Below are positions 21,887 through 64,000 of a DNA stretch of 64,000 nt, piece by piece. Every line of letters starts with the position of its first letter. Position 1 is the first letter of the stretch. A program made the position numbers and the translations under genes. The notes under the pieces were generated by a model, which was given only the letters and a program-made list of their open reading frames with translations, made no database searches and was not told where the DNA came from. Source of the stretch: an uncultured cyanobacterium (GTDB taxonomy: Bacteria > Cyanobacteriota > Cyanobacteriia > Cyanobacteriales > CAWUOF01); the NCBI GenBank assembly GCA_963744145.1, contig CAVUSO010000001.1, positions 4,640,001 through 4,704,000 on the forward strand, given 5' to 3'.

Positions 21887-22288
21887 TTAAGTAGGAGGAT
21901 TATCCTCTTGATTACGCTGATTAATCAGAATATCAAGCATCCGTCTTGTCTCAATTCTCAAACCCACAATTTCTTCTTGCTGTCGATCCATTCTTTGAAA
22001 TAACTGTTCTCGTTCTTCCCTAGCTTCTGCTGCCACATTTGCTAATGCTTGAATAACGCGAGCATTACTCTCAATTAAGCGATTGTTATTCTCCGTTGCG
22101 ATCGCAATATTATCCACCCGATTGGTCAAAGTTTCGAGGGAACTAGCGATATTATCTACCCGATTGGTCAAACCTTCTACCGAACTAGCTATACTATCTA
22201 CCCGATTGGTCAAACCTTCTACCGAATTAGCTAGACGATCTAGTCTCGCATCATCCCATTGCTGTCTACTCATAGTTTTTTTTTCCAA
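21887..22288 (-). CDS. Coiled-coil hypothetical protein with 14-aa repeats
   Basis: SVEGLTNRVDSIAS-type unit about three times; paralog of 22390-22713. Confidence 0.8.
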   Translation of the reverse strand: MEKKTMSRQQWDDARLDRLANSVEGLTNRVDSIASSVEGLTNRVDNIASSLETLTNRVDNIAIATENNNRLIESNARVIQALANVAAEAREEREQLFQRMDRQQEEIVGLRIETRRMLDILINQRNQEDNPPT

Positions 22289-22389
22289 AATTGCTGATTT
22301 TTATCATAATTTAGATTTTAGTTATTTTACTAATCATGCCGCGATCGCCTGTTTTTCTACGGTGCGATCGCGCCGACTTTATAATTGAG

Positions 22390-22713
22390 TTAAGCAGTAG
22401 GATTATCCCCTTGGTTACGCTGATTGATTAGAATATCAAGCATCCGTCTTGTCTCAATTCTCAAACCCACAATTTCTTCTTGCTGACGATCCATCCTTTG
22501 AAATAACTGATCCATCCTTTGAAATAACTGTTCCCGTTCTTCCCTGGCTTCTGCTGCCACATTTGCTAAAGCTTGAATAATGCGAGCATTACTCTCGATC
22601 AGGCGATTGTTGTTCTCAATAGCGCGATTATTATTCTCAATAGCGCGAGTATTACTCTCAACCATATTGGCCAATCGGTCTAGCCGCTCATCATCCCAGC
22701 GTTCTGTACTCAT
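22390..22713 (-). CDS. Coiled-coil hypothetical protein with 7-aa repeats
   Basis: WDDERLDRLAN start and C-terminal ~60 aa nearly identical to the neighbour. Confidence 0.8.
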   Translation of the reverse strand: MSTERWDDERLDRLANMVESNTRAIENNNRAIENNNRLIESNARIIQALANVAAEAREEREQLFQRMDQLFQRMDRQQEEIVGLRIETRRMLDILINQRNQGDNPTA

Positions 22714-23439
22714 ATATTTTCTCTTTTCCTCTACTTTTTAGGATAACTTCAATTTTAATTCCTTTGCGTAGATGCCGCGATCGCCCCGACTTTCCTTATT
22801 ATACTAGCTTCCACCTCTGTCTATCCAAAAATATCTCCCTCAACTACAGCCCAATTTCTCTTTTATCCGTTGACAGTGTTCTACAATTTTTGGCTCTTTC
22901 GGCATTTGGTGGTAAAATGTAACTGCTAATACATTTTACGAGGTAGTCAAAAATGGACTTGCACCTAGATATTTTACTAAATTTGCCTAATGTAACGGTT
23001 TTTACTTGTGATCAGAAAGAAGAATTCACGGATTCTAAAACTGGATTTATTGAACGATAAAATTAGTTGTGTTTACTACGGAAAATCGACGGATGAAATC
23101 TATCAAATTCGTCCGATTTTAGTCAGGGATTTATCAATTTGTGGTCAAGGAGTATATCTCCAAGTACCAAGACGACAAATTTATTGTCCATCTTGTAAAA
23201 AATACTCAACCGCAGCTTTAGATTTTGTAGAAAAAGGTCGTAATTATACTAAGAGATCCGAGGAATATATTTATGAGCGAGTCAAAGAATTAACAGTAGA
23301 GCAAGTGAGTCGTCATGAACAACTAAGTGCAGAACAAGTGCAAAATATCTTTTCAAGAATTGCCAAAACTAAAAAAAAGACTGGTTGCTACCAGAAAGAC
23401 TGAGTTGAGATAAATTCAGTAAAGAAAAAGGAAAAGGAA

Positions 23440-23463
23440 TGTTTCGACTCCGCTCAACACAAG
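23440..23463 (+). repeat. 24-nt short dispersed repeat inserted in the transposase
   Basis: tgtttcgactccgctcaacacaag; removal restores GKGKFVTVVSDLD. Confidence 0.8.
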
Positions 23464-23590
23464 AGTTTGTTACGGTAGTTAGTGACCTTGATCAAGGGTC
23501 ATTATTAGAAGTTATAGATTCCCATAAAAGTGATGAGATTATAGAAGTCTTCAAGACTCAACCCCTTGCTATAAGGGAGAATGTTAAGGA

Positions 23591-23618
23591 GTAGGGGCGT
23601 ATTGCAATACGCCCGTAC
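23591..23618. repeat. GTAG REP-like palindrome inside the transposase
   Basis: gtaggggcgtattgcaatacgcccgtac interrupts VKE...IDMW. Confidence 0.8.
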
Positions 23619-23939
23619 ATAGATATGTGGGGCGGTTTTCCGAAAGTTATAAAAGAAGTTTTTCCTCATACCTTAATTGTAATTGACAGGTTTCATGTCA
23701 TGCAGCTAGTAAATAAGGCTGTCAATAAAATCCGACTTATGTTAAATTTAAAAGGTTTAAAAAATCGCTACTTACTTATTAAAAATGCTAGCAATTTAAC
23801 TGAATCAGAAAAAATCGAGCTGGAACAATTATTGAATTGTTCTCCTTGTTGAAGAATTGCTGATGATTTGAAAGAAGAATTAAGAGATATTTATGAAACC
23901 AGTAATACAGTAAAAATGGGATTGAAAAGATTGAAAAAA

Positions 23940-23963
23940 CTTGTGTTGAGCGTAGTCGAAACA
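23940..23963 (-). repeat. 24-nt short dispersed repeat, in-frame (LVLSVVET)
   Basis: Reverse complement of 23440-23463 with one mismatch. Confidence 0.8.
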
Positions 23964-24205
23964 TGGTTAGGTTTTGCTCGGATAATCTTAGGGCAAGTTG
24001 CTGACACTCTATCAAAGCATATTCAAGAAATTTGTAACTATTTTGTCAGTAAAACAACTAGTGGGAAAAGGTCAGAAATTAGTAACAAGATTAAATTGAT
24101 TATTAGACAAAGCTATGGGTTCAAAAGGTTTGATTATTTACGAGAAAAACTATTAGCTTGCTTATTTTAATAAGTCGTACTTATCACCACAGATCCGGGA
24201 GAGCC

Positions 24206-24537
24206 AAATTACCTTCTTCGTAGGATTTTCAATAAACTGTCTTTTCCAGTTCTGACACTGATATTTCTGTTTTTTATTATGAATTCTACCATTTTTGACC
24301 ACATGACTAGAACCACAATTAGGACAACTAAGGTTTTCGTTTGACATCCTGTAATAAACCGAGAAATTTGCTTAGATTATTTTCAGATTAGCAGATTTTT
24401 CTCCAAATTAGGATGAGGAAATTCTATCTACTTAATCTAAATTAATAATTATTATTAATAGTCAGACTTATAATTAAGTAATAACAAGTAAATTTGAACA
24501 GGAAAAATTTGCTCATCACTACATTTTTGGCACTACC
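24206..24537 (-). mobile_element. IS1-family remnant (terminal repeat plus InsA zinc-ribbon fragment) cut at the ISL3 end
   Basis: CPNCGSSHVVKNG...QKYQCQ; minus-strand end ggtagtgccaaaaatgtagtgatg at 24537. Confidence 0.75.
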
Positions 24538-24594: not shown

Positions 24595-26076
24595 TTAGAA
24601 GGGAGGTTCTTTCAACTCTGAATCTTCTTCCCATTTAGCTGGAGATTCCGCAGCACGTTTATTATTATGCTTGGGAACATCATAGAGAGAAGGAGATTTT
24701 TGTGCTTTGGTTTCACCATGACGACGCATAGATGTACCTTCCTCAGCAGTATCTTCTGCGATTACTTCATATAATATCGCTTGTTTATTTTGCTCCGTTC
24801 CTTTCCGAAGCACTCTCCCTAAACGTTGAATATATTCCCGTTGAGAACCAGTTCCAGATAACAGAATTGCTACTCTTGCATCGGGTACGTCAACACCCTC
24901 ATTTAAAACATGGGATGCGACTAAGGTTTTATATTCACCGCTCCGAAAACGAGTTAAAACTTGGTGACGTTCTTTGATTGGTGTTTGATGGGTAATTGCA
25001 GGGATTAGAAATTCTTGAGAAATCCGATAAACAGTAGCATTGTCTGCGGTAAAAATGAGAATACGTTCGGGGTGATGTTGGGATAGTAAATCAGCTAATA
25101 TGCGAATTTTGCTGCTAGTTCCCTGGGAGATTTCTTTAGCTTGTCGATGTGCTAACATCGCTCTTCTTCCCGCAGACGATCGCGCACTTGCTTGTACAAA
25201 TAATTGCCAACCTTCCATTTTCCCCAAGGAAATATGAGCGGTTCGCAAAAATTCATTACGAGTTTTAATTAGTTGATTATAGAGTTCTCGTTCTTGCTGG
25301 GATAGTTTAACCTTAATTTGGACAATTTTATGATCAGCTAAAGCTGCTCCAGCTAATTCTTCCGCAGTTTTCCGATAAACTTCTGGACCAATTAAAACCT
25401 GCAAATCTAAATGTTTCTGATCGGAACGTTCTGGTGTTGCTGTTAATCCTAATCGATAGGGTGCGATCGCATATTCGGCAATGACTCGGTTAAAATCTGT
25501 AGGTAAGTGGTGACATTCATCAAAAATCACTAAAGCATAACGATTTCCCAGGGATTCAGCATGGATTGCTGCACTATCATAGGTCGCGACCAAAATTGCA
25601 GTGCGATCGCGAGAACCTCCTCCTAATAATCCTATTTCTGCATCAGGAAAAGCCGCAACTAAATGAGCATACCATTGGTGCATTAAATCTAATGTTGGTA
25701 CTACGACTAGGGTACTACGAGGAGTAGCTTCCATAGCTAATTGTGCTAAATAAGTCTTACCCGCAGCTGTCGGAAGAACTACTACACCTTGTCGTCCCGC
25801 TTGTTTCCAAGCAGTTAAAGCTTCTTGTTGATGAGGATAGGGAGTCATTACTAAACTCGGTACGAGTTCTAAAGGGACAAATCCCTTTGCTTCATCAATA
25901 AAATTACTTCCCTCTGCTTGGAGGGTTTCTACCAATCTGCGATAGTTGATTGCTTCAATCCGAAATTTTTCGACCCGATCGTCCCATGTCGCAAATTCCA
26001 CCCAAGATTTGCCCCTCGGTGGTGGATGTAATAGTAGTGTACCCCCATGAAATGTTAATGTTGGTGTGCGAGCCAT
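24595..26076 (-). CDS. XPB/Rad25-like superfamily II helicase
   Basis: PYPHQQEAL, LPTAAGKT, DECHH, GLTAT, NEGVDVP, QRLGRVLR. Confidence 0.9.
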   Translation of the reverse strand: MARTPTLTFHGGTLLLHPPPRGKSWVEFATWDDRVEKFRIEAINYRRLVETLQAEGSNFIDEAKGFVPLELVPSLVMTPYPHQQEALTAWKQAGRQGVVVLPTAAGKTYLAQLAMEATPRSTLVVVPTLDLMHQWYAHLVAAFPDAEIGLLGGGSRDRTAILVATYDSAAIHAESLGNRYALVIFDECHHLPTDFNRVIAEYAIAPYRLGLTATPERSDQKHLDLQVLIGPEVYRKTAEELAGAALADHKIVQIKVKLSQQERELYNQLIKTRNEFLRTAHISLGKMEGWQLFVQASARSSAGRRAMLAHRQAKEISQGTSSKIRILADLLSQHHPERILIFTADNATVYRISQEFLIPAITHQTPIKERHQVLTRFRSGEYKTLVASHVLNEGVDVPDARVAILLSGTGSQREYIQRLGRVLRKGTEQNKQAILYEVIAEDTAEEGTSMRRHGETKAQKSPSLYDVPKHNNKRAAESPAKWEEDSELKEPPF

Positions 26077-26106: not shown

Positions 26107-27342
26107 TTAATAGCGCGATCGCCACCTCCACCACAATCGACCACCAAAATAGCCGCAGATAATTCCCATTATTATACTTATTATTAATGATAATCCAAAA
26201 TTAAAAACTGCATTACTAGGGATCATAATTTCCTTACCTTCCTCAAGTTTTTTAGCAGGAAATGGTGTGATTACTTCAATTAAAGGACTAATCACCGAAG
26301 CGGTTGCTGAAGTAACACCGATCGCAATGCCAAAGGTGGCAATTTCTAATTGTAAATCGCGATCGCTCTGGATTTGCTTACTAGCTACCATTGCGCGTAA
26401 ATTATCAATCCAGGTATTCCACACTTTTACTCTCGATGTCAGAACATCAATGTCTTTTTCTACCTGGATTTGATATTTTTCTTGAGCAATTTGACTAAAA
26501 TCGTTTAGACAAATTAGTTCAGTATTTAGCTGTTCTTCGTTTCGAGCTTTAATTTCGATGCTATTTAAACGTTCTTTATAGTTGAATAAATTTATTTTAA
26601 TCGTCTGCTGTTGGATTTCTAAGTAAGTTTGATCAGCAATAAATTTAGATAAAGTTTGGAGATTTTGACTTAGTTCTATTTTGAGATTCTCTAAATTTTT
26701 ATCAATATGATGATTTACTGATAGGGTTTGACTACTAGATGGGAAAAAATTAGCTGGTAAATTGAGTTGTAAAGTGTTACTATAAGCCCAGAGGATTTTA
26801 TTGCGGTAATAAAATAAGTTAACCCAATCTTCATAGAATTTATTAATTTTTTCTAAGGTAGTTTGATTAGGGAAAATTATAATTACAATTCGACTATTTT
26901 TTTCGGTAGTTAAGTCTTGCCAATTTTGGGTAGGTTGCCAAATTTCAAAAATCTTTCCCCCCATAAATTCCCCTGGTGTGGGGTTTTGGGGACATTTTTC
27001 TCCAGAAAATGATTCGTAGATGTTTTTAGCTAGGATGGTAGTATCTTTTGGCTCAATATTTTCTGGTAAATATCCTATTAACATCCAAGTTTTTGTCAGC
27101 TCTGTGGTTGGATGAAATTTTGAGTTTATGTTTTTTTGAAAGTCTCGAAAACAGCTAATTGGTTGAGGAGTTGCTGATTCTGAAGATGCGATCGAATAGC
27201 AATATAAATCAGCTTTGACATCAGATAATGGCAATTGTATCCAAAAATAGGTTTCTCCTTTTTGTGGATGGTTATCTAGGTTTGGTTGGTGGTTAAAGTG
27301 ATAGGTAAATAAAAATAGATGGGGATATTTTAATTCATTCAT
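26107..27342 (-). CDS. Hypothetical protein: globular N-terminus, coiled coil, two C-terminal TM helices (TPR-CHAT-associated)
   Basis: 411 aa; IATFGIAIGVTSATASVI and FGLSLIISIIMGIICGYFG helices; basic WWRWRSRY tail. Confidence 0.8.
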   Translation of the reverse strand: MNELKYPHLFLFTYHFNHQPNLDNHPQKGETYFWIQLPLSDVKADLYCYSIASSESATPQPISCFRDFQKNINSKFHPTTELTKTWMLIGYLPENIEPKDTTILAKNIYESFSGEKCPQNPTPGEFMGGKIFEIWQPTQNWQDLTTEKNSRIVIIIFPNQTTLEKINKFYEDWVNLFYYRNKILWAYSNTLQLNLPANFFPSSSQTLSVNHHIDKNLENLKIELSQNLQTLSKFIADQTYLEIQQQTIKINLFNYKERLNSIEIKARNEEQLNTELICLNDFSQIAQEKYQIQVEKDIDVLTSRVKVWNTWIDNLRAMVASKQIQSDRDLQLEIATFGIAIGVTSATASVISPLIEVITPFPAKKLEEGKEIMIPSNAVFNFGLSLIISIIMGIICGYFGGRLWWRWRSRY

Positions 27343-27499
27343 TAGTTATACCGATTGATCTGATGTGTTTGTTATTTTTCATTGCTGTGGAGTGAATGAT
27401 GAGAGTGTTTTGTGTTCTGGTTTAATTGATAGTTAACGGATTGATCCCCCAGAGCCAACCTTAATAAGGGCTAGGGAGGATCTAAATCTTCAGACTCTA

Positions 27500-27985
27500 C
27501 TATACTATATGTATAGGGACAATCTCATATAGCACTTCAGATATTTTTTTCACCATCTTTTCGGCACTTATTTTCAATGTATCAGTTGACTTAAGCATTT
27601 TGAGCAATTCATCTACCTCTTTCGTAAATAATTCATCTACCTCTTTCTTAAATTCCTCTAACGAATCCCTTGACAAATCAGAATTTCTGATCTCCTTATT
27701 CTCACGTTCAGGTAATCGTTCACCTTCATCTAGAGGCACCACACACTTATTACGCGGCTGTTGGTGCTTCATTAACTTATCATAATAAGCCTGAAATACA
27801 TCATTTAAAGATTTATCCTGATAGATAATCTGACTAAGTTCCTCCATCGCTGAAGAAAAATCCTCTTCAATTCGGGAACTGAGTTGTTTAATTTCACTTT
27901 CTACCTTACTATCAAGAGCATCTACATGATATAGCGTCGCCAAAAAAGCCCGAAAAATCAATTCATCTTCTAAAGTGTAATTCAT
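27500..27985 (-). CDS. Small acidic helical protein downstream of TPR-CHAT
   Basis: 161-aa ORF starting 29 bp after the CHAT gene stop. Confidence 0.8.
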   Translation of the reverse strand: MNYTLEDELIFRAFLATLYHVDALDSKVESEIKQLSSRIEEDFSSAMEELSQIIYQDKSLNDVFQAYYDKLMKHQQPRNKCVVPLDEGERLPERENKEIRNSDLSRDSLEEFKKEVDELFTKEVDELLKMLKSTDTLKISAEKMVKKISEVLYEIVPIHIV

Positions 27986-28014
27986 AAAACAATTGGGTAA
28001 TAAATTTCATCCTC

Positions 28015-31000
28015 CTATTCCTCATTACTAGCTTCATAACCAGTAATGGTAAAACCTGCCCAATAATAGGGATCTGCATAGGTCTTGATTTCCATTATAT
28101 CAGGTCTTTGGCGGATTTGGTTGCAGCTACTTTGCAGTGCTCGCCAACATTTTGACCCTTCCGGGATAGTTGTCATCAATTGTTCATACCATTCGATGAG
28201 ATTGCTTTTGGTGACTGTCCTGAGCCAATTTTGCGCTTGTTTTAGAGCAACGGGTGGTGCATGATCTGGGAGATTTTCGTAAAATTTTATCATCAGATTA
28301 GCTGTGGCAATGTCCTCTACTTCCCATAGGGTACTCACCACATATTTCGCCCCTTTAGCTAAAAACCCACTCCCTAAACCGACGTATTCGTTGATTAAAT
28401 CTTGGGAACTGGTTAAACCAGTTTCGCACGCGGACAGACAAATGAGATTATATCTGTGAAAATCTAGTTCAAAGATGTCGGTGAGGGTGAGTAATTCTTT
28501 CTGAGTTAATTGTAATCCTGAGTCTTCGGGATTGTCGAAATTATGAATCCCATGTCCGGTAAAATGGAAGATATCCCTACCTTGTTGGAGCGCCACTATT
28601 ACTCTATTTTTATCAGCACTTTGTTGGTTGAGCAACTGATGGGTTTGGGGGTATTTGTTGATAATTAGATCGGATTCAGTAGCAGAATAAACCATAGTCC
28701 CACTGGGATCTTTCACCATCAATAGGTTAGTAGGTGTGCTGTTTTCCCTGGGGAATCTTCGGCTCATTTTGATGGTAGGTAGGTAAGTGATGGTAAAGTT
28801 TTGCTCCCAAAACAGATAATGGAGGGGTAGGAGATGGAAGTCACGATGGGGACTCAGGATCAGGTGGGTGATTCCAGTCAGATATTGCTGGCAAATTGTT
28901 TCTATATTGAGGATTTCCTTGAGGTTATTTAAACTGGTTTCTAGGTGTTTTTGCCAATCTTTGAGACTAGGGTTTTGAGCATCTTTGTGCTTATTTTTTC
29001 GGGAATTTTGATATTCGCTTTTCCATGTTTTCAACCATTCTTCTAGGGAGGACAGATGTTCCTTTCGATCCAATGTGAAGGGATAGATGTCTGTGGTAAT
29101 AACTTGGGGATCTCCTGAGTGTCTAATGATAAAGGTGGTGAGGGAAAATGGGCTTAGGTGCCAATAAATTATCGCTGTTTGGGGCTGATTTGTCAGTAAT
29201 CCTTGGATCTGGGCAAAAGTAGGGCTATCGATTTGGTCGGGATTTTGCCAACCTGTTTCCATCCATTTGAGAGATTGGTTTTTCCGTCTTTCCGCTGTTT
29301 CTAGAGCAAGGATTTGCTGTCCAGACTGAACTAATTGCTCAATCTTAAATTGGGAAAATGCGCTAAATTTGCGGTTGAATCGTAGTTTTATTTCTGCTGG
29401 AGTGTCATGATCTAACCTTAAATTCTCTAGTAGGTTAGTACCTTGATCAAGATATTCATCAGCTTGACTATCTCCTAAAGCGCGACAGACAATGATTAAT
29501 GCTTGTAAGACTTCTAGATAAGTCTCAGTAATTATATAATTCTTAGCAATAAGGGCAGATTTTAGGAATTCGCAGGCTTGTTCATAGCTAGCTTTGGCTT
29601 TACAGAAATATACTGACTGAAAATTTGTTCTTTTACCATATTTGTAATGTGCCTCGCCTTTTTGCTGATGCAATGTACCACAAGCTAGACGATAGTCAGG
29701 GTTACTTTCCTGATATTTCTTTAAGCCTTCATCCCAGTTTTTAATAGCTTCTTCGTAGCGATCGGAATCAAAAAACGCCAAACCTCGATTATTCCAAGAT
29801 TGCCAATCTTGATCTTTGGCAATATATAAGGCGCGGTCATAAGCGGCGATCGCCTCCTTGTATCTCCCTAAATGATAGAGGACAATGCCCCGTCCGCCAT
29901 GGGGAGCAGCGTAGTTGGGGTCTAGGGCGATGGCGCGGTCATAAGCCTCGATCGCCTCGTTATATCTCCCTAACTCACTGAGGACATTGCCCCGTCCGTG
30001 ATGGGAAGCGGTGATGTTGGGGTCTAGGGCGATGGCGCGGTCATAAGCCTCGATCGCCTCGTTATATCTCCCTAAATTAGCGAGGACATTGCCCCGTCCG
30101 TGATGGGAAGCGGCGTCGTTGGGGTCTAGGGCGATGGCGCGGTCATAAGCCTCGATCGCCTCGTTATATCTCCCTAACTCACTGAGGACATTGCCCCGTC
30201 CGTGATGGGAAGCGGCGTCGTTGGGGTCTAGGGCGATGGCGCGGTCAAAAGCCTCGATCGCCTCGTTATATCTCCCTAAATTAGCGAGGACATTGCCCCG
30301 TGCCGTATGGGGACGGGCGATGTTTGGGTCTAGGGCGATGGCGCGGTCATAAGCCTCGATCGCCTCGTTATATCTCCCTAACTCACTGAGGACATTGCCC
30401 CGTGCCCTATGGGGAGGGGCGATGTTGGGGTCTAGGGCGATAGCGCGGTCAAAAGCCTCGATCGCCTCGTTATATCTCCCTAAATTAGCGAGGACATTGC
30501 CCCGTGCCGTATGGGGACGGGCGATGTTTGGGTCTAGGGCGATGGCGCGGTCATAAGCCTCGATCGCCTCGTTATATCTCCCTAACTCACTGAGGACAGT
30601 GCCCCGTCCGTGATGGAAAGGGGCGATGTTGGGGTCTAGGGCGATGGCGCGGTCATAAGCCTCGATCGCCTCGTTATATCTCCCTAACTTACTGAGGACA
30701 GTGCCCCGTCCGTGATGGGGAGGGGCGATGTTGGGGTCTAGGGCGATGGCGCGGTCAAAAGCCTCGATCGCCTCGTTATATCTCCCTAACTCACTGAGGA
30801 CATTGCCCCGTCCGTGATGGGAAGCGGTGAAGTTGGGGTCTAGGGCGATGGCGCGGTCAAAAGCCTCGATCGCTCCTTTTAAATCCCCTGCATAGTAACG
30901 AGCTACCCCTTGATTATATAAATCTTTTGGATCTTCTCCTTCGTTCTTAGGTTTCCTTGCCAACAATTCTCGCCCAATCTTTCCCGCTATCTTCGATATT

Positions 31001-31344
31001 TTCTCGTAATTTGCCTCACTCAACAGTAACAGTCGCTCACCTAATTCTAAATTCAATTCAGGGGATGCAAGAACGCGATCGCCAAATTCTTGCAGCCATT
31101 TGTCCCAATCTATATTCTGATTTTTGATCAAAAACACTTTGAGCTGGACACGAATACCATCCAATTTCACACTTTGGAGGAATGGCAAAAATATCTGTTC
31201 GCACTCACTAAAAGAAGGTTCTGGATCTGGAGGTGGAGGTGTCTGGGGTGGTGGGGATTTGAGGAAAAGTTGCTTGACTCGCTGCCACAGTTGGCACAGT
31301 TTTTGCCAGATGCGTTGGAACATAGGAGAATCTGGTGAACTCAT
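28015..31344 (-). CDS. TPR-repeat plus CHAT (caspase-like) protease
   Basis: 34-aa TPR array; CHAT motifs LLPLH, HFTGHG, LSACETG, STLWEV, PYYWAGF. Confidence 0.93.
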   Translation of the reverse strand: MSSPDSPMFQRIWQKLCQLWQRVKQLFLKSPPPQTPPPPDPEPSFSECEQIFLPFLQSVKLDGIRVQLKVFLIKNQNIDWDKWLQEFGDRVLASPELNLELGERLLLLSEANYEKISKIAGKIGRELLARKPKNEGEDPKDLYNQGVARYYAGDLKGAIEAFDRAIALDPNFTASHHGRGNVLSELGRYNEAIEAFDRAIALDPNIAPPHHGRGTVLSKLGRYNEAIEAYDRAIALDPNIAPFHHGRGTVLSELGRYNEAIEAYDRAIALDPNIARPHTARGNVLANLGRYNEAIEAFDRAIALDPNIAPPHRARGNVLSELGRYNEAIEAYDRAIALDPNIARPHTARGNVLANLGRYNEAIEAFDRAIALDPNDAASHHGRGNVLSELGRYNEAIEAYDRAIALDPNDAASHHGRGNVLANLGRYNEAIEAYDRAIALDPNITASHHGRGNVLSELGRYNEAIEAYDRAIALDPNYAAPHGGRGIVLYHLGRYKEAIAAYDRALYIAKDQDWQSWNNRGLAFFDSDRYEEAIKNWDEGLKKYQESNPDYRLACGTLHQQKGEAHYKYGKRTNFQSVYFCKAKASYEQACEFLKSALIAKNYIITETYLEVLQALIIVCRALGDSQADEYLDQGTNLLENLRLDHDTPAEIKLRFNRKFSAFSQFKIEQLVQSGQQILALETAERRKNQSLKWMETGWQNPDQIDSPTFAQIQGLLTNQPQTAIIYWHLSPFSLTTFIIRHSGDPQVITTDIYPFTLDRKEHLSSLEEWLKTWKSEYQNSRKNKHKDAQNPSLKDWQKHLETSLNNLKEILNIETICQQYLTGITHLILSPHRDFHLLPLHYLFWEQNFTITYLPTIKMSRRFPRENSTPTNLLMVKDPSGTMVYSATESDLIINKYPQTHQLLNQQSADKNRVIVALQQGRDIFHFTGHGIHNFDNPEDSGLQLTQKELLTLTDIFELDFHRYNLICLSACETGLTSSQDLINEYVGLGSGFLAKGAKYVVSTLWEVEDIATANLMIKFYENLPDHAPPVALKQAQNWLRTVTKSNLIEWYEQLMTTIPEGSKCWRALQSSCNQIRQRPDIMEIKTYADPYYWAGFTITGYEASNEE
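29831..30873 (-). repeat. Ten 102-bp near-identical tandem repeats plus a partial copy (TPR array)
   Basis: gcgcggtc recurs every 102 bp from 29831 to 30851. Confidence 0.95.
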
Positions 31345-31756: not shown

Positions 31757-32696
31757 ATGAGATTTATTAGTCCCAAAATTGATTATGCCTTTAAAAAAAT
31801 CTTCGGTTCGAGCCAAAGTGAACAAATTTTAATTAGTTTTCTGAATGCAATTATGTATAATGGGGAGAAAATCATTGAATCCCTCAATATTGTCAATCCC
31901 TATAATCCGGGTCAAGTGGTCAGTTTAAAGGAGTCTTATTTAGATGTAAAAGCGGTCTTAACCGATGGTTCAATAATTCTGATCGAAATGCAAATAGCTC
32001 GGGTGAGTGCCTTCAGTAAAAGAGTAATTTACAATGTGGGAAAAGCTTATACAAATCAATTAGGAATCGGGGAATATTATCCGGGTTTAACACCAGTAAT
32101 TGGAGTGACAATCACCGATTTTATAATGTTTCCTCAGACCCCAGAAGTCATCACTCAATTTGGGTTAGTGGAGCAGACCAAAAAATTTCCCTATCCCGAC
32201 CAAGAATTACAGTTCATTTTTGTGGAATTACCAAAATTTCAGAAACAACTATCAGAATTAGCTAACTTGAGGGAACAATGGATATATTTTCTGAAAGAAG
32301 CAGCAAGATTAGAGACAATTCCCCAGGAATTAGGTCAGGTAAGTGAAATCGAACTAGCTTTAAATATAGCGAATCAAGCCAATATGACTGTAGAGGAATT
32401 AGAAATAGTAGATAGAAGAGGAATGTTGTTACAAGATGAAAAAGGACGTTCTGACTTATGCTAGGGAAGAAGGTCGTGCTGAAGGTTTTACTGAAGGTCG
32501 TGCTGAAGGTCAAAGGTTGGGTGAACAACAATTGTTACTTCGTCAATTGCACAAGCGTTTTGGTGAATTACCAACTTCTATAACTCAACCAATTGAAAAC
32601 CTATCTATTTCCGATTTAATTAATTTAGGAGAAAATATTTTCGATTTCGATAGTCTCAGAGATTTGCAAGAATGGTTGGAACTTAGAGAAAACTAA
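31757..32696 (+). pseudogene. Rpn family PD-(D/E)XK nuclease copy 1, +1 frameshift near 32450
   Basis: aaaggacgttctgac versus aaaggwcgtctgac in the other four copies. Confidence 0.85.
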
Positions 32697-32936
32697 CAGA
32701 AATGTTCCTCTCGCTCCAAACCCAATCGGAATATCGACCGGGTGATGGAGCGAGTTTCTAATATTGATTAGAGTAATTAAGGATTATTCGCGATCGATTT
32801 AGCCAAACTAGATATTGCTGAGAAATCGTCATAATTTAGTAGTCTTGACTGGCGATAAAATTCATGTTCTGATAAACTAATATATGAGCAGAAAACCTGA
32901 ATCTAACTATCAAATTGCTATCCCAGGAGAACCCAG

Positions 32937-33863
32937 ATGAGATTTATTAGTCCCAAAATTGATTATGCCTTTAAAAAAATCTTCGGTTCGAGCCAAAGTG
33001 AACAAATTTTAATTAGTTTTCTGAATGCGATTATGTATAATGGGGAGAAAATCATTGAATCCCTCAATATTGTCAATCCCTATAATCCGGGTCAAGTGGT
33101 CAGTTTAAAGGAGTCTTATTTAGATGTAAAAGCGGTCTTAACCGATGGTTCAATAATTCTGATCGAAATGCAAATAGCGCGAGTGAGTGCCTTCAGTAAA
33201 AGAGTAATTTATAATGTGGGAAAAGCTTATACAAATCAATTAGGAATCGGGGAATATTATCCGGGTTTAACACCAGTAATTGGAGTGACAATCACCGATT
33301 TTATGATGTTTCCTCAGACCCCAGAAGTCATCACTCAATTTGGGTTGGTGGAGCAGACCAAAAAATTTCCCTATCCCGACCAAGAATTACAGTTCATTTT
33401 TGTGGAATTACCAAAATTTCAGAAACAACTATCAGAATTAGCTAACTTGAGGGAACAATGGATATATTTTCTGAAAGAAGCAGCAAGATTAGAGACAATT
33501 CCCCAGGAATTAGGTCAGGTAAGTGAAATCGAACTAGCTTTAAATATAGCGAATCAAGCCAATATGACTGTAGAGGAATTAGAAATAGTAGATAGAAGAG
33601 GAATGTTGTTACAAGATGAAAAAGGTCGTCTGACTTATGCTAGAGAAGAAGGTCGTGCTGAAGGTCGTGCTGAAGGTCAAAGGTTGGGGGAACAACAATT
33701 GTTACTTCGTCTATTGCACAAGCGTTTTGGTGAATTACCAACTTCTATAACTCAACCAATTGAAAACCTATCTATTCCCGATTTAATTAATTTAGGAGAA
33801 AATATTTTCGATTTCGATAGTCTCAGAGATTTGCAAGAATGGTTGGAACTTAGAGAAAACTAA
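32937..33863 (+). CDS. Rpn family PD-(D/E)XK nuclease/putative transposase with DUF4351-like C-terminus, copy 2
   Basis: DYAFKKIFG, LDVKA, IEMQ, FVELPKF, EGRAEG linker, LLRLLHKRFG...IFDF. Confidence 0.9.
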   Translation: MRFISPKIDYAFKKIFGSSQSEQILISFLNAIMYNGEKIIESLNIVNPYNPGQVVSLKESYLDVKAVLTDGSIILIEMQIARVSAFSKRVIYNVGKAYTNQLGIGEYYPGLTPVIGVTITDFMMFPQTPEVITQFGLVEQTKKFPYPDQELQFIFVELPKFQKQLSELANLREQWIYFLKEAARLETIPQELGQVSEIELALNIANQANMTVEELEIVDRRGMLLQDEKGRLTYAREEGRAEGRAEGQRLGEQQLLLRLLHKRFGELPTSITQPIENLSIPDLINLGENIFDFDSLRDLQEWLELREN

Positions 33864-34095
33864 CAGAAATGTTCCTCTCGCTCCAAACCCAATCGGAATA
33901 TCAACCGGGTGATGGAGCGAGTTTCTAATATTGATTAGAGTAATTAAGGATTATTTGCGATCGCTTGAATCAAACTAGATATTGCTGAGAAATCGTTATA
34001 ATCTGGTAGTCTTGACTGGCGATATAATTCATTTTCTGATAAACTAATTGATTAGCGGAAAACCTGAATCTAACTGCCATCCCAGGAGAAATCAG

Positions 34096-35058
34096 ATGAG
34101 ATTTATTAGTCCCAAAATTGATTATGCCTTTAAAAAAATCTTCGGTTCGAGCCAAAGTGAACAAATTTTAATTAGTTTTCTGAATGCGATTATGTATAAT
34201 GGGGAGAGAATCATTGAATCCCTCAATATTGTCAATCCCTATAATCCGGGTCAAGTGGTCAGCTTAAAGGAGTCTTATTTAGATGTAAAAGCGGTCTTAA
34301 CCGATGGTTCAATAATTCTGATCGAAATGCAAATAGCGCGAGTGAGTGCCTTCAGTAAAAGAGTAATTTATAATGTGGGAAAAGCTTATACAAATCAATT
34401 AGGAATCGGGGAATATTATCCGGGTTTAACACCAGTAATTGGAGTGACAATCACCGATTTTATAATGTTTCCTCAGACCCCAGAAGTCATCACTCAATTT
34501 GGGTTGGTGGAGCAGACCAAAAAATTTCCCTATCCCGACCAAGAATTACAGTTCATTTTTGTGGAATTACCAAAATTTCAGAAACAATTATCAGAATTAG
34601 CTAATTTGAGGGAACAATGGATATATTTTCTGAAAGAAGCAGCAAGATTAGAGACAATTCCCCAGGAATTAGGTCAGGTAAGTGAAATTGAACTAGCTTT
34701 AAATATAGCGAATCAAGCCAATATGACTGTAGAGGAATTAGAAATAGTAGATAGAAGAGGAATGTTGTTACAAGATGAAAAAGGTCGTCTGACTTATGCT
34801 AGGGAAGAAGGTCGTGCTGAAGGTCTTACTGAAGGTCGTGCTGAAGGTCGTGCTGAAGGTCGTGCTGAAGGTCAAAGGTTGGGGGAACAACAATTGTTAC
34901 TTCGTCTATTGCACAAGCGTTTTGGTGAATTACCAACTTCTATAACTCAACCAATTGAAAACCTATCTATTCCCGATTTAATTACTTTAGGAGAAAATAT
35001 TTTCGATTTCGATAGTCTCAGAGATTTGCAGCAATGGCTGGAACTTAGAGAAAACTAA
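34096..35058 (+). CDS. Rpn family nuclease, copy 3
   Basis: As copy 2; AGGAGA SD precedes ATG 34096. Confidence 0.9.
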   Translation: MRFISPKIDYAFKKIFGSSQSEQILISFLNAIMYNGERIIESLNIVNPYNPGQVVSLKESYLDVKAVLTDGSIILIEMQIARVSAFSKRVIYNVGKAYTNQLGIGEYYPGLTPVIGVTITDFIMFPQTPEVITQFGLVEQTKKFPYPDQELQFIFVELPKFQKQLSELANLREQWIYFLKEAARLETIPQELGQVSEIELALNIANQANMTVEELEIVDRRGMLLQDEKGRLTYAREEGRAEGLTEGRAEGRAEGRAEGQRLGEQQLLLRLLHKRFGELPTSITQPIENLSIPDLITLGENIFDFDSLRDLQQWLELREN

Positions 35059-35289
35059 CAGAAATGTTCCTCTCGCTCCAAACCCAATCGGAATATCGAC
35101 CGGGTGATGGAGCGAGTTGATCAGATTGATTAGAGTAATTAAGGATTATTTGCGATCGCTTGATTCCAACTAGATATTGCTGAGAAATCGTCATAATTTA
35201 GTAGTCTTGACCGGCGATAGAATTCATTTTCTGATAAACTAATTGATTAGCGGAAAACTGAATCTAAATGCCATCCCAGGAGAACTCAG

Positions 35290-36204
35290 ATGAGATTTAT
35301 TAGTCCCAAAATTGATTATGCCTTTAAAAAAATCTTTGGTTCGAGCCAAAGTGAACAAATTTTAATTAGTTTTCTGAATGCGATTATGTATAATGGGGAG
35401 AGAATCATTGAATCCCTCAATATTGTCAATCCCTATAATCCGGGTCAAGTGGTCAGCTTAAAGGAGTCTTATTTAGATGTAAAAGCGGTCTTAACAGATG
35501 GTTCAATAATTCTGATCGAAATGCAAATAGCGCGAGTGAGTGCCTTCAGTAAAAGAGTAATTTACAATGTGGGAAAAGCTTATACAAATCAATTAGGAAT
35601 CGGGGAATATTATCCAGGTTTAACACCAGTAATTGGAGTGACAATCACCGATTTTATGATGTTTCCTCAGACCCCAGAAGTCATCACTCAATTTGGGTTG
35701 GTGGAGCAGACCAAAAAATTTCCCTATCCCGACCAAGAATTACAGTTCATTTTTGTGGAATTACCAAAATTTCAGAAACAACTATCAGAATTAGCTAACT
35801 TGAGGGAACAATGGATATATTTTCTGAAAGAAGCAGCAAGATTAGAGACAATTCCCCAGGAATTAGGTCAGGTAAGTGAAATCGAACTAGCTTTAAATAT
35901 AGCGAATCAAGCCAATATGACCGTAGAGGAATTAGAAATAGTAGATAGAAGAGGAATGTTGTTACAAGATGAAAAAGGTCGTCTGACTTATGCTAGAGAA
36001 GAAGGTCGTGCTGAAGGTCAAAGGTTGGGTGAACAACAATTGTTACTTCGTCAATTGCACAAGCGTTTTGGTGAATTACCAACTTCTATAACTCAACCAA
36101 TTGAAAACCTATCTATTCCCGATTTAAATAATTTAGGAGAAAATATTTTCGATTTCGATAGTCTCAGAGATTTGCAGCAATGGCTGGAACTTAGAGAAAA
36201 CTAA
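35290..36204 (+). CDS. Rpn family nuclease, copy 4
   Basis: As copy 2; shortest linker. Confidence 0.9.
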   Translation: MRFISPKIDYAFKKIFGSSQSEQILISFLNAIMYNGERIIESLNIVNPYNPGQVVSLKESYLDVKAVLTDGSIILIEMQIARVSAFSKRVIYNVGKAYTNQLGIGEYYPGLTPVIGVTITDFMMFPQTPEVITQFGLVEQTKKFPYPDQELQFIFVELPKFQKQLSELANLREQWIYFLKEAARLETIPQELGQVSEIELALNIANQANMTVEELEIVDRRGMLLQDEKGRLTYAREEGRAEGQRLGEQQLLLRQLHKRFGELPTSITQPIENLSIPDLNNLGENIFDFDSLRDLQQWLELREN

Positions 36205-36436
36205 CATAAATGTTCCTCTCGCTCCAAACTCAATCGGAATATCAACCGCGTGATGGAGCGAGTTTCTAATATTGATTAGAGTAATTAAGGATTATTTGCG
36301 ATCGCTTGATTCCAACTAAATATTGCTGAGAAATCGTCATAATTTAGTAGTCTTGACTGGCGATAGAATTCATTTTCTGATAAACTAATATATGAGCGGA
36401 AAACCTGAATCTGACTGTTATCATAGGAGAACCCAG

Positions 36437-37387
36437 ATGAGATTTATTAGTCCCAAAATTGATTATGCCTTTAAAAAAATCTTCGGTTCGAGCCAAAGTG
36501 AACAAATTTTAATTAGTTTTCTGAATGCGATTATGTATAATGGGGAGAAAATCATTGAATCCCTCAATATTGTCAATCCCTATAATCCGGGTCAAGTGGT
36601 CAGTTTAAAGGAGTCTTATTTAGATGTAAAAGCGGTCTTAACCGATGGTTCAATAATTCTGATCGAAATGCAAATAGCGCGAGTGAGTGCCTTCAGTAAA
36701 AGAGTAATTTACAATGTGGGAAAAGCTTATACAAATCAATTAGGAATCGGGGAATATTATCCGGGTTTAACACCAGTAATTGGAGTGACAATCACCGATT
36801 TTATGATGTTTCCTCAGACCCCAGAAGTCATCACTCAATTTGGGTTAGTGGAGCAGACCAAAAAATTTCCCTATCCCGACCAAGAATTACAGTTCATTTT
36901 TGTGGAATTACCAAAATTTCAGAAACAACTATCAGAATTAGCTAATGTGAGGGAACAATGGATATATTTTCTGAAAGAAGCCGCAAGATTAGAGACAATT
37001 CCCCAGGAATTAAGTCAGGTAAGTGAAATCGAACTAGCTTTAAATATAGCGAATCAAGCCAATATGACTGTAGAGGAATTAGAAATAGTAGATAGAAGAG
37101 GAATGTTGTTACAAGATGAAAAAGGACGTCTGACTTATGCTAGAGAAGAAGGTCGTACTGAAGGTCGCGCTGAAGGTCGTGCTGAAGGTCGCGCTGAAGG
37201 TCAAAGATTGGGTGAACAACAATTGTTACTTCGCCTATTGCACAAGCGTTTTGGTGAATTACCAACTTCTATAACTCAACCAATTGAAAACCTATCTATT
37301 CCCGATTTAATTAATTTAGGAGAAAATATTTTCGATTTCGATAGTCTCAGAGATTTGCAGCAATGGCTGGAACTTAGAGAAAACTAA
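36437..37387 (+). CDS. Rpn family nuclease, copy 5
   Basis: As copy 2; AGGAGA SD precedes ATG 36437. Confidence 0.9.
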   Translation: MRFISPKIDYAFKKIFGSSQSEQILISFLNAIMYNGEKIIESLNIVNPYNPGQVVSLKESYLDVKAVLTDGSIILIEMQIARVSAFSKRVIYNVGKAYTNQLGIGEYYPGLTPVIGVTITDFMMFPQTPEVITQFGLVEQTKKFPYPDQELQFIFVELPKFQKQLSELANVREQWIYFLKEAARLETIPQELSQVSEIELALNIANQANMTVEELEIVDRRGMLLQDEKGRLTYAREEGRTEGRAEGRAEGRAEGQRLGEQQLLLRLLHKRFGELPTSITQPIENLSIPDLINLGENIFDFDSLRDLQQWLELREN

Positions 37388-62719: not shown

Positions 62720-64000
62720 ATGAAAATCCTCCACATTAGTTTAACTGAACTGGGTAAGGATTATGCTGCTTTGCGTTACTTTTGGGAGAATCCTCCTGAT
62801 TACAAGGAACACAGATTACCTCTGGCTGAAATTAAAGATTTAGGCAATCAATCAGAAGCTGATTACTATACTCGTATTCCTGTGGATTATGCTACTACCG
62901 GACAATCACTCTATAACTGGTTAGATCAGAGTGATCGCTTGTTAGCTAATGCTTTAAATCAGCCTCGTCAGGACGGGTTAGTAATTGCGATCGCGACGGA
63001 TAAAGGACTAGCAAAGTTGCCTTGGGAATTGTTGCATGATGGGAATTGTTTCTTAGTAGAGAAAAGACCTGCAATTATTCCGGTGCGGTGGGTGTCTAAT
63101 GGTCAACCGATCGCGATCGCTAACTCTCCACAAAATCGACCTCTTAATCTGTTATTTATGGCGACTTCGCCTTTAGGAGTTGAACCAGAATTAGAGTATG
63201 AAGCGGAAGAAGGGCAAATTTTAAAGACAACCCATACTCCAGTAAACTTGATAGTAGAAGAAAGTGGCTGTTTAACTGAATTGGGTCGTCTGGTTCGAGA
63301 ATATGAAAAAGGATATTTTGATATTTTTCATTTAACAGGTCATGCAACTACTGATGGGGGAAAACCCTGCTTTTTGACTGAAGACGAATACGGCAACCGA
63401 GTTGATAGCAGTACCGCCAAAATATACGATGAGCTGACATCTCCCTTACCGTCTTTAATTTTCCTCTCTGGTTGTCGAACTGGTTATTCTTCTGAGGGGA
63501 CAGTTCTCTTAATGGCCGAAGAATTATTAAAGATGGGAGGAACAGCAATTTTAGGATGGGGGGAAAGAGTCCGCGATACCCATGCAACAGCGGCTGCGAG
63601 TAAATTGTATTGTCATTTGGCTCAAGGGGACGCGATTACAGATGCACTATCTTTTACCTACAAAACCTTGATTAATGACCAGGTACAAGAGTGGCATAAA
63701 TTACGGTTATATGTGGCAAATACCTTACCCCAGGCGTTAGTAACTCCTTTAAGAACAAAGGGACGCAAACAATTGCCCAAACCGACGACAACAATCGAAT
63801 TTAGGGATGATGAACAACGGTTAAGGGTGGCAAAGAGAGAAGATTTTGTTGGTCATCGCCGCCAGTTACAGAACTGTTTGCGAACTCTGAAGCGAGATCA
63901 GGAAAAAGTAGGGGTATTAATTCATGGGATGGGGGGATTAGGAAAAAGTAGTATTGCCTCGCGATTGTGGGATAGACTACCTGAACATGAAAAAGTTTTC
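62720..64000 (+). CDS. CHAT protease plus STAND/NB-ARC-like NTPase (NLR-like), runs off window end
   Basis: Manual translation MKILHISL...LPWELLHD...FHLTGHA...FLSGCRTG...FVGHRRQL...IHGMGGLGKS; open to 64000. Confidence 0.9.
   Translation, partial: MKILHISLTELGKDYAALRYFWENPPDYKEHRLPLAEIKDLGNQSEADYYTRIPVDYATTGQSLYNWLDQSDRLLANALNQPRQDGLVIAIATDKGLAKLPWELLHDGNCFLVEKRPAIIPVRWVSNGQPIAIANSPQNRPLNLLFMATSPLGVEPELEYEAEEGQILKTTHTPVNLIVEESGCLTELGRLVREYEKGYFDIFHLTGHATTDGGKPCFLTEDEYGNRVDSSTAKIYDELTSPLPSLIFLSGCRTGYSSEGTVLLMAEELLKMGGTAILGWGERVRDTHATAAASKLYCHLAQGDAITDALSFTYKTLINDQVQEWHKLRLYVANTLPQALVTPLRTKGRKQLPKPTTTIEFRDDEQRLRVAKREDFVGHRRQLQNCLRTLKRDQEKVGVLIHGMGGLGKSSIASRLWDRLPEHEKVF

Follow-up and report, generated by a model that had tools for sequence, protein, structure and literature searches.

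The locus described here raises the question of whether three neighbouring genes of an uncultured cyanobacterium, encoding a caspase-fold protease, a small helical protein and a membrane protein, belong together as one module, and, if so, which of the two neighbouring products the protease would act on. The genes lie in a 64,000-nucleotide stretch of contig CAVUSO010000001.1 (positions 4,640,001 to 4,704,000), hereafter called the window, and positions are those of the window unless stated otherwise. The triad consists of three co-oriented open reading frames (ORFs) on the minus strand, with intergenic gaps of 29 bp between the protease gene and the small gene and 157 bp between the small gene and the membrane protein gene. 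The 161-amino acid (aa) product is referred to as the small protein, and the 411-aa membrane protein as BIG. The overall balance of the evidence tips towards the triad being a single module of the CATRA type, with a membrane effector under the control of the protease; the small protein, once cleaved, would gate BIG. The features of the triad are as follows.

28015..31344, minus strand: TPR-CHAT caspase-fold protease, 1109 aa, the proposed sensor and protease (ORF, Pfam TPR families and PF12770, dyad alignment).
29665..30936, minus strand: TPR array of ~12 near-identical 34-aa repeats (about aa 137–560), the presumed sensing or scaffold part (TPR_1/TPR_2 stretches).
28039..28929, minus strand: CHAT domain (aa 806–1102) with the catalytic His (HFTGHG) and Cys (LSACETG) (PF12770 and motif alignment).
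27500..27985, minus strand: small helical protein, 161 aa, a candidate CATASP-like partner and the proposed substrate (ORF, 30-member alignment A2, structure model with a predicted local distance difference test score (pLDDT) of 80).
27671..27760, minus strand: linker of the small protein (aa 76–105), modelled as disordered, with a basic R-N-K patch and E-[IL]-x-N (alignment and model).
27683-27685, minus strand: codon of Asn101 in the small protein (29 of the 30 homologues in the alignment have Asn here).
26107..27342, minus strand: BIG, 411 aa, of CorA-like architecture, the proposed effector (ORF, family clusters, AlphaFold2 (AF2), Foldseek).
26770..27342, minus strand: predicted cytoplasmic alpha/beta N-domain of BIG (aa 1–191) with a conserved N-terminal LIYPxLxLF strand (alignment and model).
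26137..26349, minus strand: predicted transmembrane (TM) hairpin of BIG, with TM1 (aa 332–358), a short beta-hairpin loop, TM2 (aa 376–402) and a basic tail (hydropathy and model).

An earlier note, made from the letters of this DNA, had described three minus-strand genes, an intact His/Cys dyad in the 1109-aa CHAT protein, a charged linker in the small protein, and a 411-aa protein with a globular domain, a long coiled coil, two C-terminal TM helices and a basic tail. This anatomy was recovered throughout. The same ORFs, lengths, coordinates and co-orientation were found, both dyad motifs are in place, the linker stretch quoted there (QQPRNKCVVPLDEGERLPERENK) is present, and the hydropathy profile and model of BIG agree with the described parts.

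To place the triad among its relatives, BIG homologues were collected from 61 related genomes, all of one order, and were detected in 37 of them, with up to 7 matches per genome. A first set contained the 60 best places (57 in relatives and 3 paralogues in the genome of the window itself), for which ORFs were called and matches to hidden Markov models assigned locally. From this set, 54 loci with BIG ORFs of at least 400 aa were kept, and 6 fragmentary loci with BIG ORFs below 400 aa were dropped. A second set contained 16 divergent places caught only by a profile of the BIG N-domain (A4), giving 70 examined loci and 76 loci fetched overall (L011–L070 and L083–L098). The gene neighbourhoods of BIG were distributed as follows.

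Co-oriented CHAT gene upstream of BIG: 30 of 54 in the first set, 12 of 16 in the second set, 42 of 70 in total.
In-frame fusion of BIG to a truncated TPR-CHAT (L083): 0 of 54, 1 of 16, 1 of 70.
Divergent caspase(C14)-STAND giant beside BIG: 7 of 54, 0 of 16, 7 of 70.
BIG at a contig end, undecidable: 4 of 54, 0 of 16, 4 of 70.
No protease near BIG: 13 of 54, 3 of 16, 16 of 70.

A caspase-fold protease is linked to 50 of the 70 BIG homologues, which speaks clearly in favour of the expectation in the earlier note that the genes downstream of the protease are tied to TPR-CHAT genes elsewhere. Of the CHAT genes in the first set, 29 are no more than three genes away from BIG, and the remaining one is the fourth upstream gene. 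Plasmid annotations from Tolypothrix sp. PCC 7712 and from Planktothrix agardhii show the same gene order, in which a large TPR or CHAT protein, a hypothetical protein of 128–130 aa and a hypothetical protein of 470 aa follow one another. Scans of genome and metagenome contigs for close orthologues with their flanks returned no relative.

Within the genome of the window, all four BIG loci have a same-strand CHAT gene directly upstream.

This locus: CHAT of 1109 aa, small protein of 161 aa, BIG of 411 aa.
p3: CHAT of 859 aa, small protein of 137 aa, BIG of 471 aa.
p2: CHAT broken into pieces of 251 and 181 aa, small protein of 153 aa, BIG of 445 aa.
p4: CHAT of 968 aa with both catalytic residues lost, no small gene, BIG of 490 aa.

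Assuming uniform placement, the chance of a same-strand CHAT gene within 3 kb is ~0.017 per gene and ~8e-8 for four of four; chance adjacency of CHAT and BIG was rejected on the linkage counts. Paralogue p4 (locus L070, G000:C1:967895-972302, where G000 is the genome of the window) represents a natural "dead protease" variant, in which the dyad sites read FSFIGMTEY and LSIGENA and the BIG frame is open. The small and BIG genes, separated by 157 bp in the window, overlap in p2 and p3.

The protease of the triad contains 12 TPR stretches and a PF12770 CHAT domain at residues 806–1102 (E 9.1e-40, Pfam), and the G+C content is raised to 0.51–0.57 over the TPR array. The His and Cys residues are kept in 28 of the 29 BIG-linked CHATs of at least 400 aa. 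The sole exception, p4, is also the only separate-CHAT locus without a small gene. Given this retention of the dyad, the BIG-linked protease is presumably meant to be active, an activity predicted from sequence. The genome (7.70 Mb) contains 85 PF12770 matches, only 4 of which are BIG-linked. When the non-TPR part of this CHAT was compared with 47 CHAT-like ORFs of the genome, the top three were the other BIG-linked CHATs (307, 252 and 153 bits), and the next-best ORF reached 120 bits. One subclade of BIG and a CHAT subclade with the motif HFSCHG are accompanied by a second family of small proteins. The three parts co-diversify, and the module evolves as a unit. Two further observations concern CHAT proteins of the same genome. 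A second CHAT protein starts at the right end of the window (62720-64000, plus strand; match G000:4702897-4703685, window 62897-63685). The CHAT protein at G000:C1:4835061-4836182 (minus strand) has an N-terminal region of ~135 aa (MFQRIWQ..., a Pro-rich stretch, then helical), an unnamed pre-TPR domain that recurs in p2, p4 and one further ORF elsewhere in the genome.

The seven giants beside BIG range from 957 to 1913 aa. Their N-terminal ~250 residues are caspase-like, with GHG and DCC[HYF]SG kept in all seven, and Pfam reported Peptidase_C14 for two of them. The caspase-like domain is followed by nSTAND1 (E 1e-103 or better in six of the seven) with WD40 or TPR repeats; in the L037 giant, nSTAND1 is weak and stands beside other STAND-type ATPase domains. 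Three elements are constant in the module: the small protein, BIG, and a clan-CD protease whose sensor (TPR or STAND-WD40) can be exchanged. In L083 (5311-9060, minus strand), TPRs, half a CHAT domain (the first 136 of 289 profile positions) and a full BIG are joined in one ORF of 1249 aa. This ORF is probably a deletion product that fused two genes and removed the small gene. Separately, the giant at L037:8943-14684 (plus strand, 1913 aa), which lies by a small and BIG gene pair, combines caspase, STAND ATPase and TPRs with a complete RelA/SpoT-TGS-ACT, which hints at a link of the protease module to (p)ppGpp metabolism.

Where the protease gene is separate (49 loci), an ORF of 96–285 aa adjoins BIG on the protease side in 48 cases (26 in the family of the window, 17 in a second, analogous family and 5 unassigned). 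Of the 16 protease-less loci, 15 have no small gene, L030 being the exception. The small gene accompanies the protease, not BIG. No family was assigned to the small protein in Pfam, PADLOC or NCBIfam, and a fold search with it gave nothing at E ≤ 0.001. Its model shows a confident four-helix bundle (residues 5–75), a coil (76–105) and two less confident helices (106–159). Conservation in A2, the alignment of the window small family (30 members including that of the window), is confined to the bundle and one linker feature, in which E-[IL]-x-N comes after a basic R-[ND]-K patch. Asn101 of this motif is the conserved residue of a linker that is otherwise unconserved, and the second small family has a comparable P-[IL]-T-N. 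We regard Asn101 as a candidate cleavage site on the basis of alignment and model. Prediction of the complex between BIG and the small protein gave a median score of 0.28 (mark 0.32), which counts neither way. The C-terminal part of the small protein (aa 113–127) also carries a tandem duplication, KEVDELF / KEVDELL.

BIG belongs to a large family of 1143 clusters (50% identity) at E ≤ 1e-3, 673 of them at E ≤ 1e-30. The best 150 cluster matches are 345–621 aa long and nearly all align end to end. BIG was not assigned to any family in Pfam, PADLOC or NCBIfam, and a scan of 62 homologues gave no meaningful Pfam match. The homologues of both BIG and the small protein are all labelled "hypothetical" in their sources, and the Atlas returned only unnamed cyanobacterial clusters, with weak leads to MJ1566_N (0.92) and DUF3422 (0.88). 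The AF2 model of BIG (pLDDT 86.3, predicted template modelling score (pTM) 0.78) consists of an alpha/beta N-domain, helices at 160–191, 217–270 and 277–358, the last of which enters TM1, a beta-hairpin loop, TM2 at 375–410 and a basic tail. Hydropathy peaks lie at 332–359 and 372–405, and the tail reads RLWWRWRSRY. This model implies an N-in/C-in topology.

The earlier note had guessed at a CorA-like topology, and the AF2 model, Foldseek and VIA-align all lend support to this guess at the level of predicted structure. Foldseek gave 31 matches in the PDB at E ≤ 1e-3, and among the matches listed all are CorA (best E 5.1e-5, probability 0.99), with alignments spanning the whole length of BIG. 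VIA-align related BIG to CorA (Z 8.8, residues 193–405), Campylobacter jejuni CorA (Z 7.7, residues 5–322) and Mrs2 (Z 7.4, residues 8–411), and its wide search, in which CorA reached Z 8.3, returned mostly generic helical hairpins. BIG and the CorA/Mrs2/ZntB (MIT) group share an overall layout in which an alpha/beta domain on the cytoplasmic side is followed by a long stalk helix that continues into TM1, and TM2 comes after a short outer loop and ends in a basic tail; BIG differs by an extra helical hairpin (residues 217–330). The sequence tests for membership were all negative. The GMN motif is absent from BIG, in which TM1 and the loop read ASVISPLIEVITPFP, whereas the true cyanobacterial CorA has YGMNF. 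A genome search with PF01544 picked up the genuine CorA alone in each genome; in this genome it gave one match, at the true CorA locus, and found no BIG locus. A comparison of the BIG profile with the cyanobacterial CorA by hhalign was null (probability 0.5%), and BIG had no significant match in sequence to PDB chains. BIG is called CorA-like rather than CorA because its predicted fold matches CorA but GMN, PF01544 and hhalign are negative. In architecture BIG is CorA-like and is not a member of the CorA family by these sequence and model comparisons; this is a resemblance, not a proven homology.

In the mechanism that we propose, TPR-CHAT would act as sensor and protease, BIG as the effector, and the small protein would couple the two. 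The activated protease would cut the linker of the small protein at or next to E-[IL]-x-N (Asn101), detaching the C-terminal amphipathic helix from the four-helix bundle, and one of the two pieces would alter the gating or assembly of BIG. BIG itself may be a CorA-fold, N-in/C-in and probably oligomeric channel that conducts ions or perturbs the membrane. The outcome would be membrane depolarisation, growth arrest or death, as in abortive infection or regulated cell death. We infer the cleavage, its site, the sign of the regulation (activation versus relief of inhibition), the channel activity and the physiological or defence role. According to a recent preprint, related modules contain protease-adjacent small proteins or effectors that a single cut activates (Evans et al., bioRxiv 10.1101/2025.11.14.688446).

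The choice of substrate leans towards the small protein rather than BIG, because the small protein tracks the apparently active protease and has an Asn-centred linker motif, and BIG has no conserved loop motif. BIG could itself be the substrate in a gasdermin-like manner, which we consider unlikely. In that case a cut at about aa 192–216 would remove an autoinhibitory domain, the coiled-coil and TM part would form a pore, and the small protein would serve as adaptor or chaperone. The loop at aa 192–216 is indeed the least confident region of the cytoplasmic part of the model (pLDDT 60–79), the ClyA pore can be aligned with the stalk and TM part, the truncated-CHAT fusion L083 exists without a small gene, and there is precedent in bacterial gasdermins and EACC1. 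However, alignment and topology revealed no conserved residue or motif in the BIG loops, in contrast to the nearly invariant Asn of the small-protein linker. The loss of the small gene where the protease is absent or dead would also be left unexplained, and the L083 fusion, holding less than half of the CHAT profile, looks like a deletion product.

Another explanation keeps the small protein as substrate and reverses the sign, so that an antitoxin-like inhibitor holding BIG closed is destroyed by the protease. It draws on the same linkage and motif evidence as the cleaved-activator mechanism and is the simplest analogy to toxin-antitoxin logic. The 16 stand-alone BIG genes and the dead-CHAT locus without a small gene nevertheless keep a full-length, open BIG, which is hard to square with default toxicity, and we rate this explanation slightly below direct cleavage of BIG. 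We argue from the stand-alone genes that BIG is not toxic by default, and these genes favour release of an activator over destruction of an inhibitor.

The stand-alone BIG genes also leave room for a non-immune, physiological role. The explanation that BIG is a regulated membrane channel or transporter of cyanobacterial physiology (ion homeostasis, or stress or developmental death of filaments), with TPR-CHAT or caspase-STAND as regulatory proteases, accords with the conserved housekeeping-like neighbourhoods of stand-alone BIG, the presence of the family in more than half of the genomes searched with several copies in some, the lack of phage matches and the many CHAT matches of the genome that are unlinked to BIG, yet it seems improbable in view of a patchy, multi-copy, plasmid-borne and transposon-adjacent distribution, decayed copies (the broken CHAT of p2 and BIG fragments at several loci) and a swapping of TPR and STAND-WD40 sensors that is typical of conflict systems. 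The phage comparison covered 50,697 phage records, in which no match to BIG was found.

Returning to the module with a cleaved small protein, several observations weigh against it. No recognised defence genes were found directly beside the locus by PADLOC and annotation of the flanks. The same Asn motif occurs beside two clan-CD families (CHAT and C14), and it fits a role in docking to BIG as well as a shared cleavage site. The fold scores of BIG are middling, with template modelling scores of ~0.2 and Z below 9, values that unrelated long-helix proteins can reach; ClyA also gives Z 7.6 against BIG, and the null hhalign result points the same way. Furthermore, 16 of 70 BIG genes lack a protease and stand in housekeeping-like synteny, and 15 of these also lack the small gene. 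Examples of this synteny are MscS..BIG-HDAC-GCS2-SpoU and a Mur ligase or TPR-only protein followed by BIG and RNase H. Since these genes stand alone in such neighbourhoods, BIG can function in the absence of the protease, and killing the cell need not be its role. The model of the earlier note does not foresee this stand-alone class. Its overall interpretation holds for the linkage and the CorA-like fold, at the level of genomics and structure prediction, and is thin in its defence-island context.

A more specific form of the preferred mechanism can be proposed, although it is doubtful as a whole. The small protein would be a pro-ligand that the CHAT or C14 protease cuts after the conserved Asn, with a legumain-like P1 preference. 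The freed helical fragment would bind the cytoplasmic domain and open the CorA-fold channel, and stand-alone BIG genes would represent housekeeping ancestors. If true, a peptide-gated CorA-like channel would carry out immunity or cell death, and proteolysis would play the part that nucleotide gating plays for the CorA effectors of type III CRISPR systems. Those divergent CorA proteins are gated by SAM-AMP and depend on nucleotide signalling, whereas BIG is protease-linked instead.

The closest named system to the triad is CATRA/CATASP. CATRA was reportedly defined computationally by Burroughs and Aravind in 2020, and its partner domains are named CATRA-N and CATRA-C. Compared by description in citing papers, the architecture and the restricted distribution fit, and the triad most likely belongs to CATRA. 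As described in those papers, CATRA shares with the triad a three-gene set of a TPR-fused caspase-fold protease, a small associated protein and a larger third partner. The citing literature calls CATRA "phyletically restricted", and homologues of the triad were seen only in cyanobacterial genomes and plasmids, with Atlas clusters commonest in Cyanobacteriota. CATASP is listed among uncharacterised protease-associated modules by Evans et al. (bioRxiv 10.1101/2025.11.14.688446). Two differences were also observed. Variable domains in the effector position, e.g., GT4, are attributed to CATRA, but none were seen here among the BIG N-domain matches of the 61 genomes, all of one order; these ~100 matches are all open frames of standard size, and 16 of 16 newly fetched loci have the stalk/TM module. 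In addition, the small and BIG genes of this family also pair with caspase(C14)-STAND-WD40 proteins, which lack the TPR-CHAT architecture.

Bacterial gasdermins with their caspase-like proteases, EACC1 and Pepco resemble the triad in placing the gene of a clan-CD or other protease beside that of a non-enzymatic membrane-active protein, in interchangeable protease-fused sensors (TPR and STAND), and in licensing by a single cleavage. Their effectors, however, are small, beta-rich and cut directly, in contrast to a large helical integral-membrane protein with an intervening helical small protein. No gasdermin was listed in the fold-search lists, an absence too weak on its own to rule out a gasdermin fold, and both neighbours of CHAT are modelled as helical. 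Craspase is the type III-E gRAMP with the TPR-CHAT protein Csx29, which cleaves Csx30. The triad is similar to it in the TPR-CHAT architecture and in cleavage of a neighbouring gene product as the proposed output. It differs in that the Csx29 equivalog model NF041237 of NCBIfam gave this CHAT 68.5 bits, far below the cut-off of 300, and in that the small protein and BIG are unmatched in Pfam, PADLOC and NCBIfam, with no dedicated search made for CRISPR arrays or gRAMP.

The triad is a genuine, conserved gene set and a good target for experiments, and it most likely represents a system already predicted and experimentally untouched. No experimental study of the triad was found in the literature searched. 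Five points are new: BIG is assigned a CorA-like fold, with sequence tests for CorA explicitly negative; an Asn motif is put forward as the candidate place of cleavage; small and BIG genes are found paired with caspase-STAND giants; one paralogue with a dead protease lacks the small gene; and some BIG lineages stand alone. Protease-licensed effectors are emerging as a dominant logic in prokaryotic immunity. The triad offers handles in the candidate motif at Asn101 and in a putative channel-like CorA-fold effector rather than a beta-pore. Natural controls are provided by p4, which has lost the dyad and the small gene, and by the stand-alone BIG genes, and two interchangeable sensor-protease chassis, TPR-CHAT and caspase-STAND-WD40, are available. 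The module also bears on regulated cell death in filamentous, bloom-forming cyanobacteria, which have very large CHAT expansions such as the 85 matches here.

The flanks of the triad contain the following features.

24595-26076, minus strand: XPB-type helicase (XPB_DRD, ResIII and Helicase_C), 30 bp downstream of BIG and co-oriented with it (Pfam).
31757-37387, plus strand: five tandem near-identical PDDEXK_2 and DUF4351 genes (Rpn-like recombination-promoting nuclease) (Pfam).
23008-24347: ISL3 transposase in at least 3 ORFs (HTH/Zn-ribbon, then two DDE pieces), with an InsA zinc-ribbon fragment on the opposite strand.
21887-22713, minus strand: two adjoining small proteins of 133 and 107 aa with identical C-terminal halves (no Pfam match).

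The first PDDEXK_2 and DUF4351 copy is broken up into the ORFs 31757-32464 and 32436-32696, and CobN and an ABC transporter lie beyond the insertion sequence (IS) fragments and the Rpn-like genes. The earlier note had placed the triad among IS remnants and beside an Rpn array, in a defence-island context. The ISL3 and InsA remnants and the Rpn-like array are present, with no recognised defence system alongside. The defence-island label is weakly founded, since the flanks hold remnants of mobile elements, housekeeping genes and an XPB-type helicase present as a single copy. A scan of the locus for promoters and terminators gave counts near those in shuffled sequence and was uninformative.

The XPB-type helicase has one close copy in the genome (phmmer). 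No Bax1/DUF790 partner is visible beside it, and IS fragments are found there instead. The helicase was rejected as a fourth component of the module, with a single marginal phmmer match (E 7.6e-4) among the ORFs of the 76 fetched loci, and is regarded as an incidental neighbour of the triad. Of the two adjoining small proteins beyond the ISL3 fragments, the 133-aa protein contains internal repeats of the NRVD[SN]IASS[VL]E[GT]LT type.

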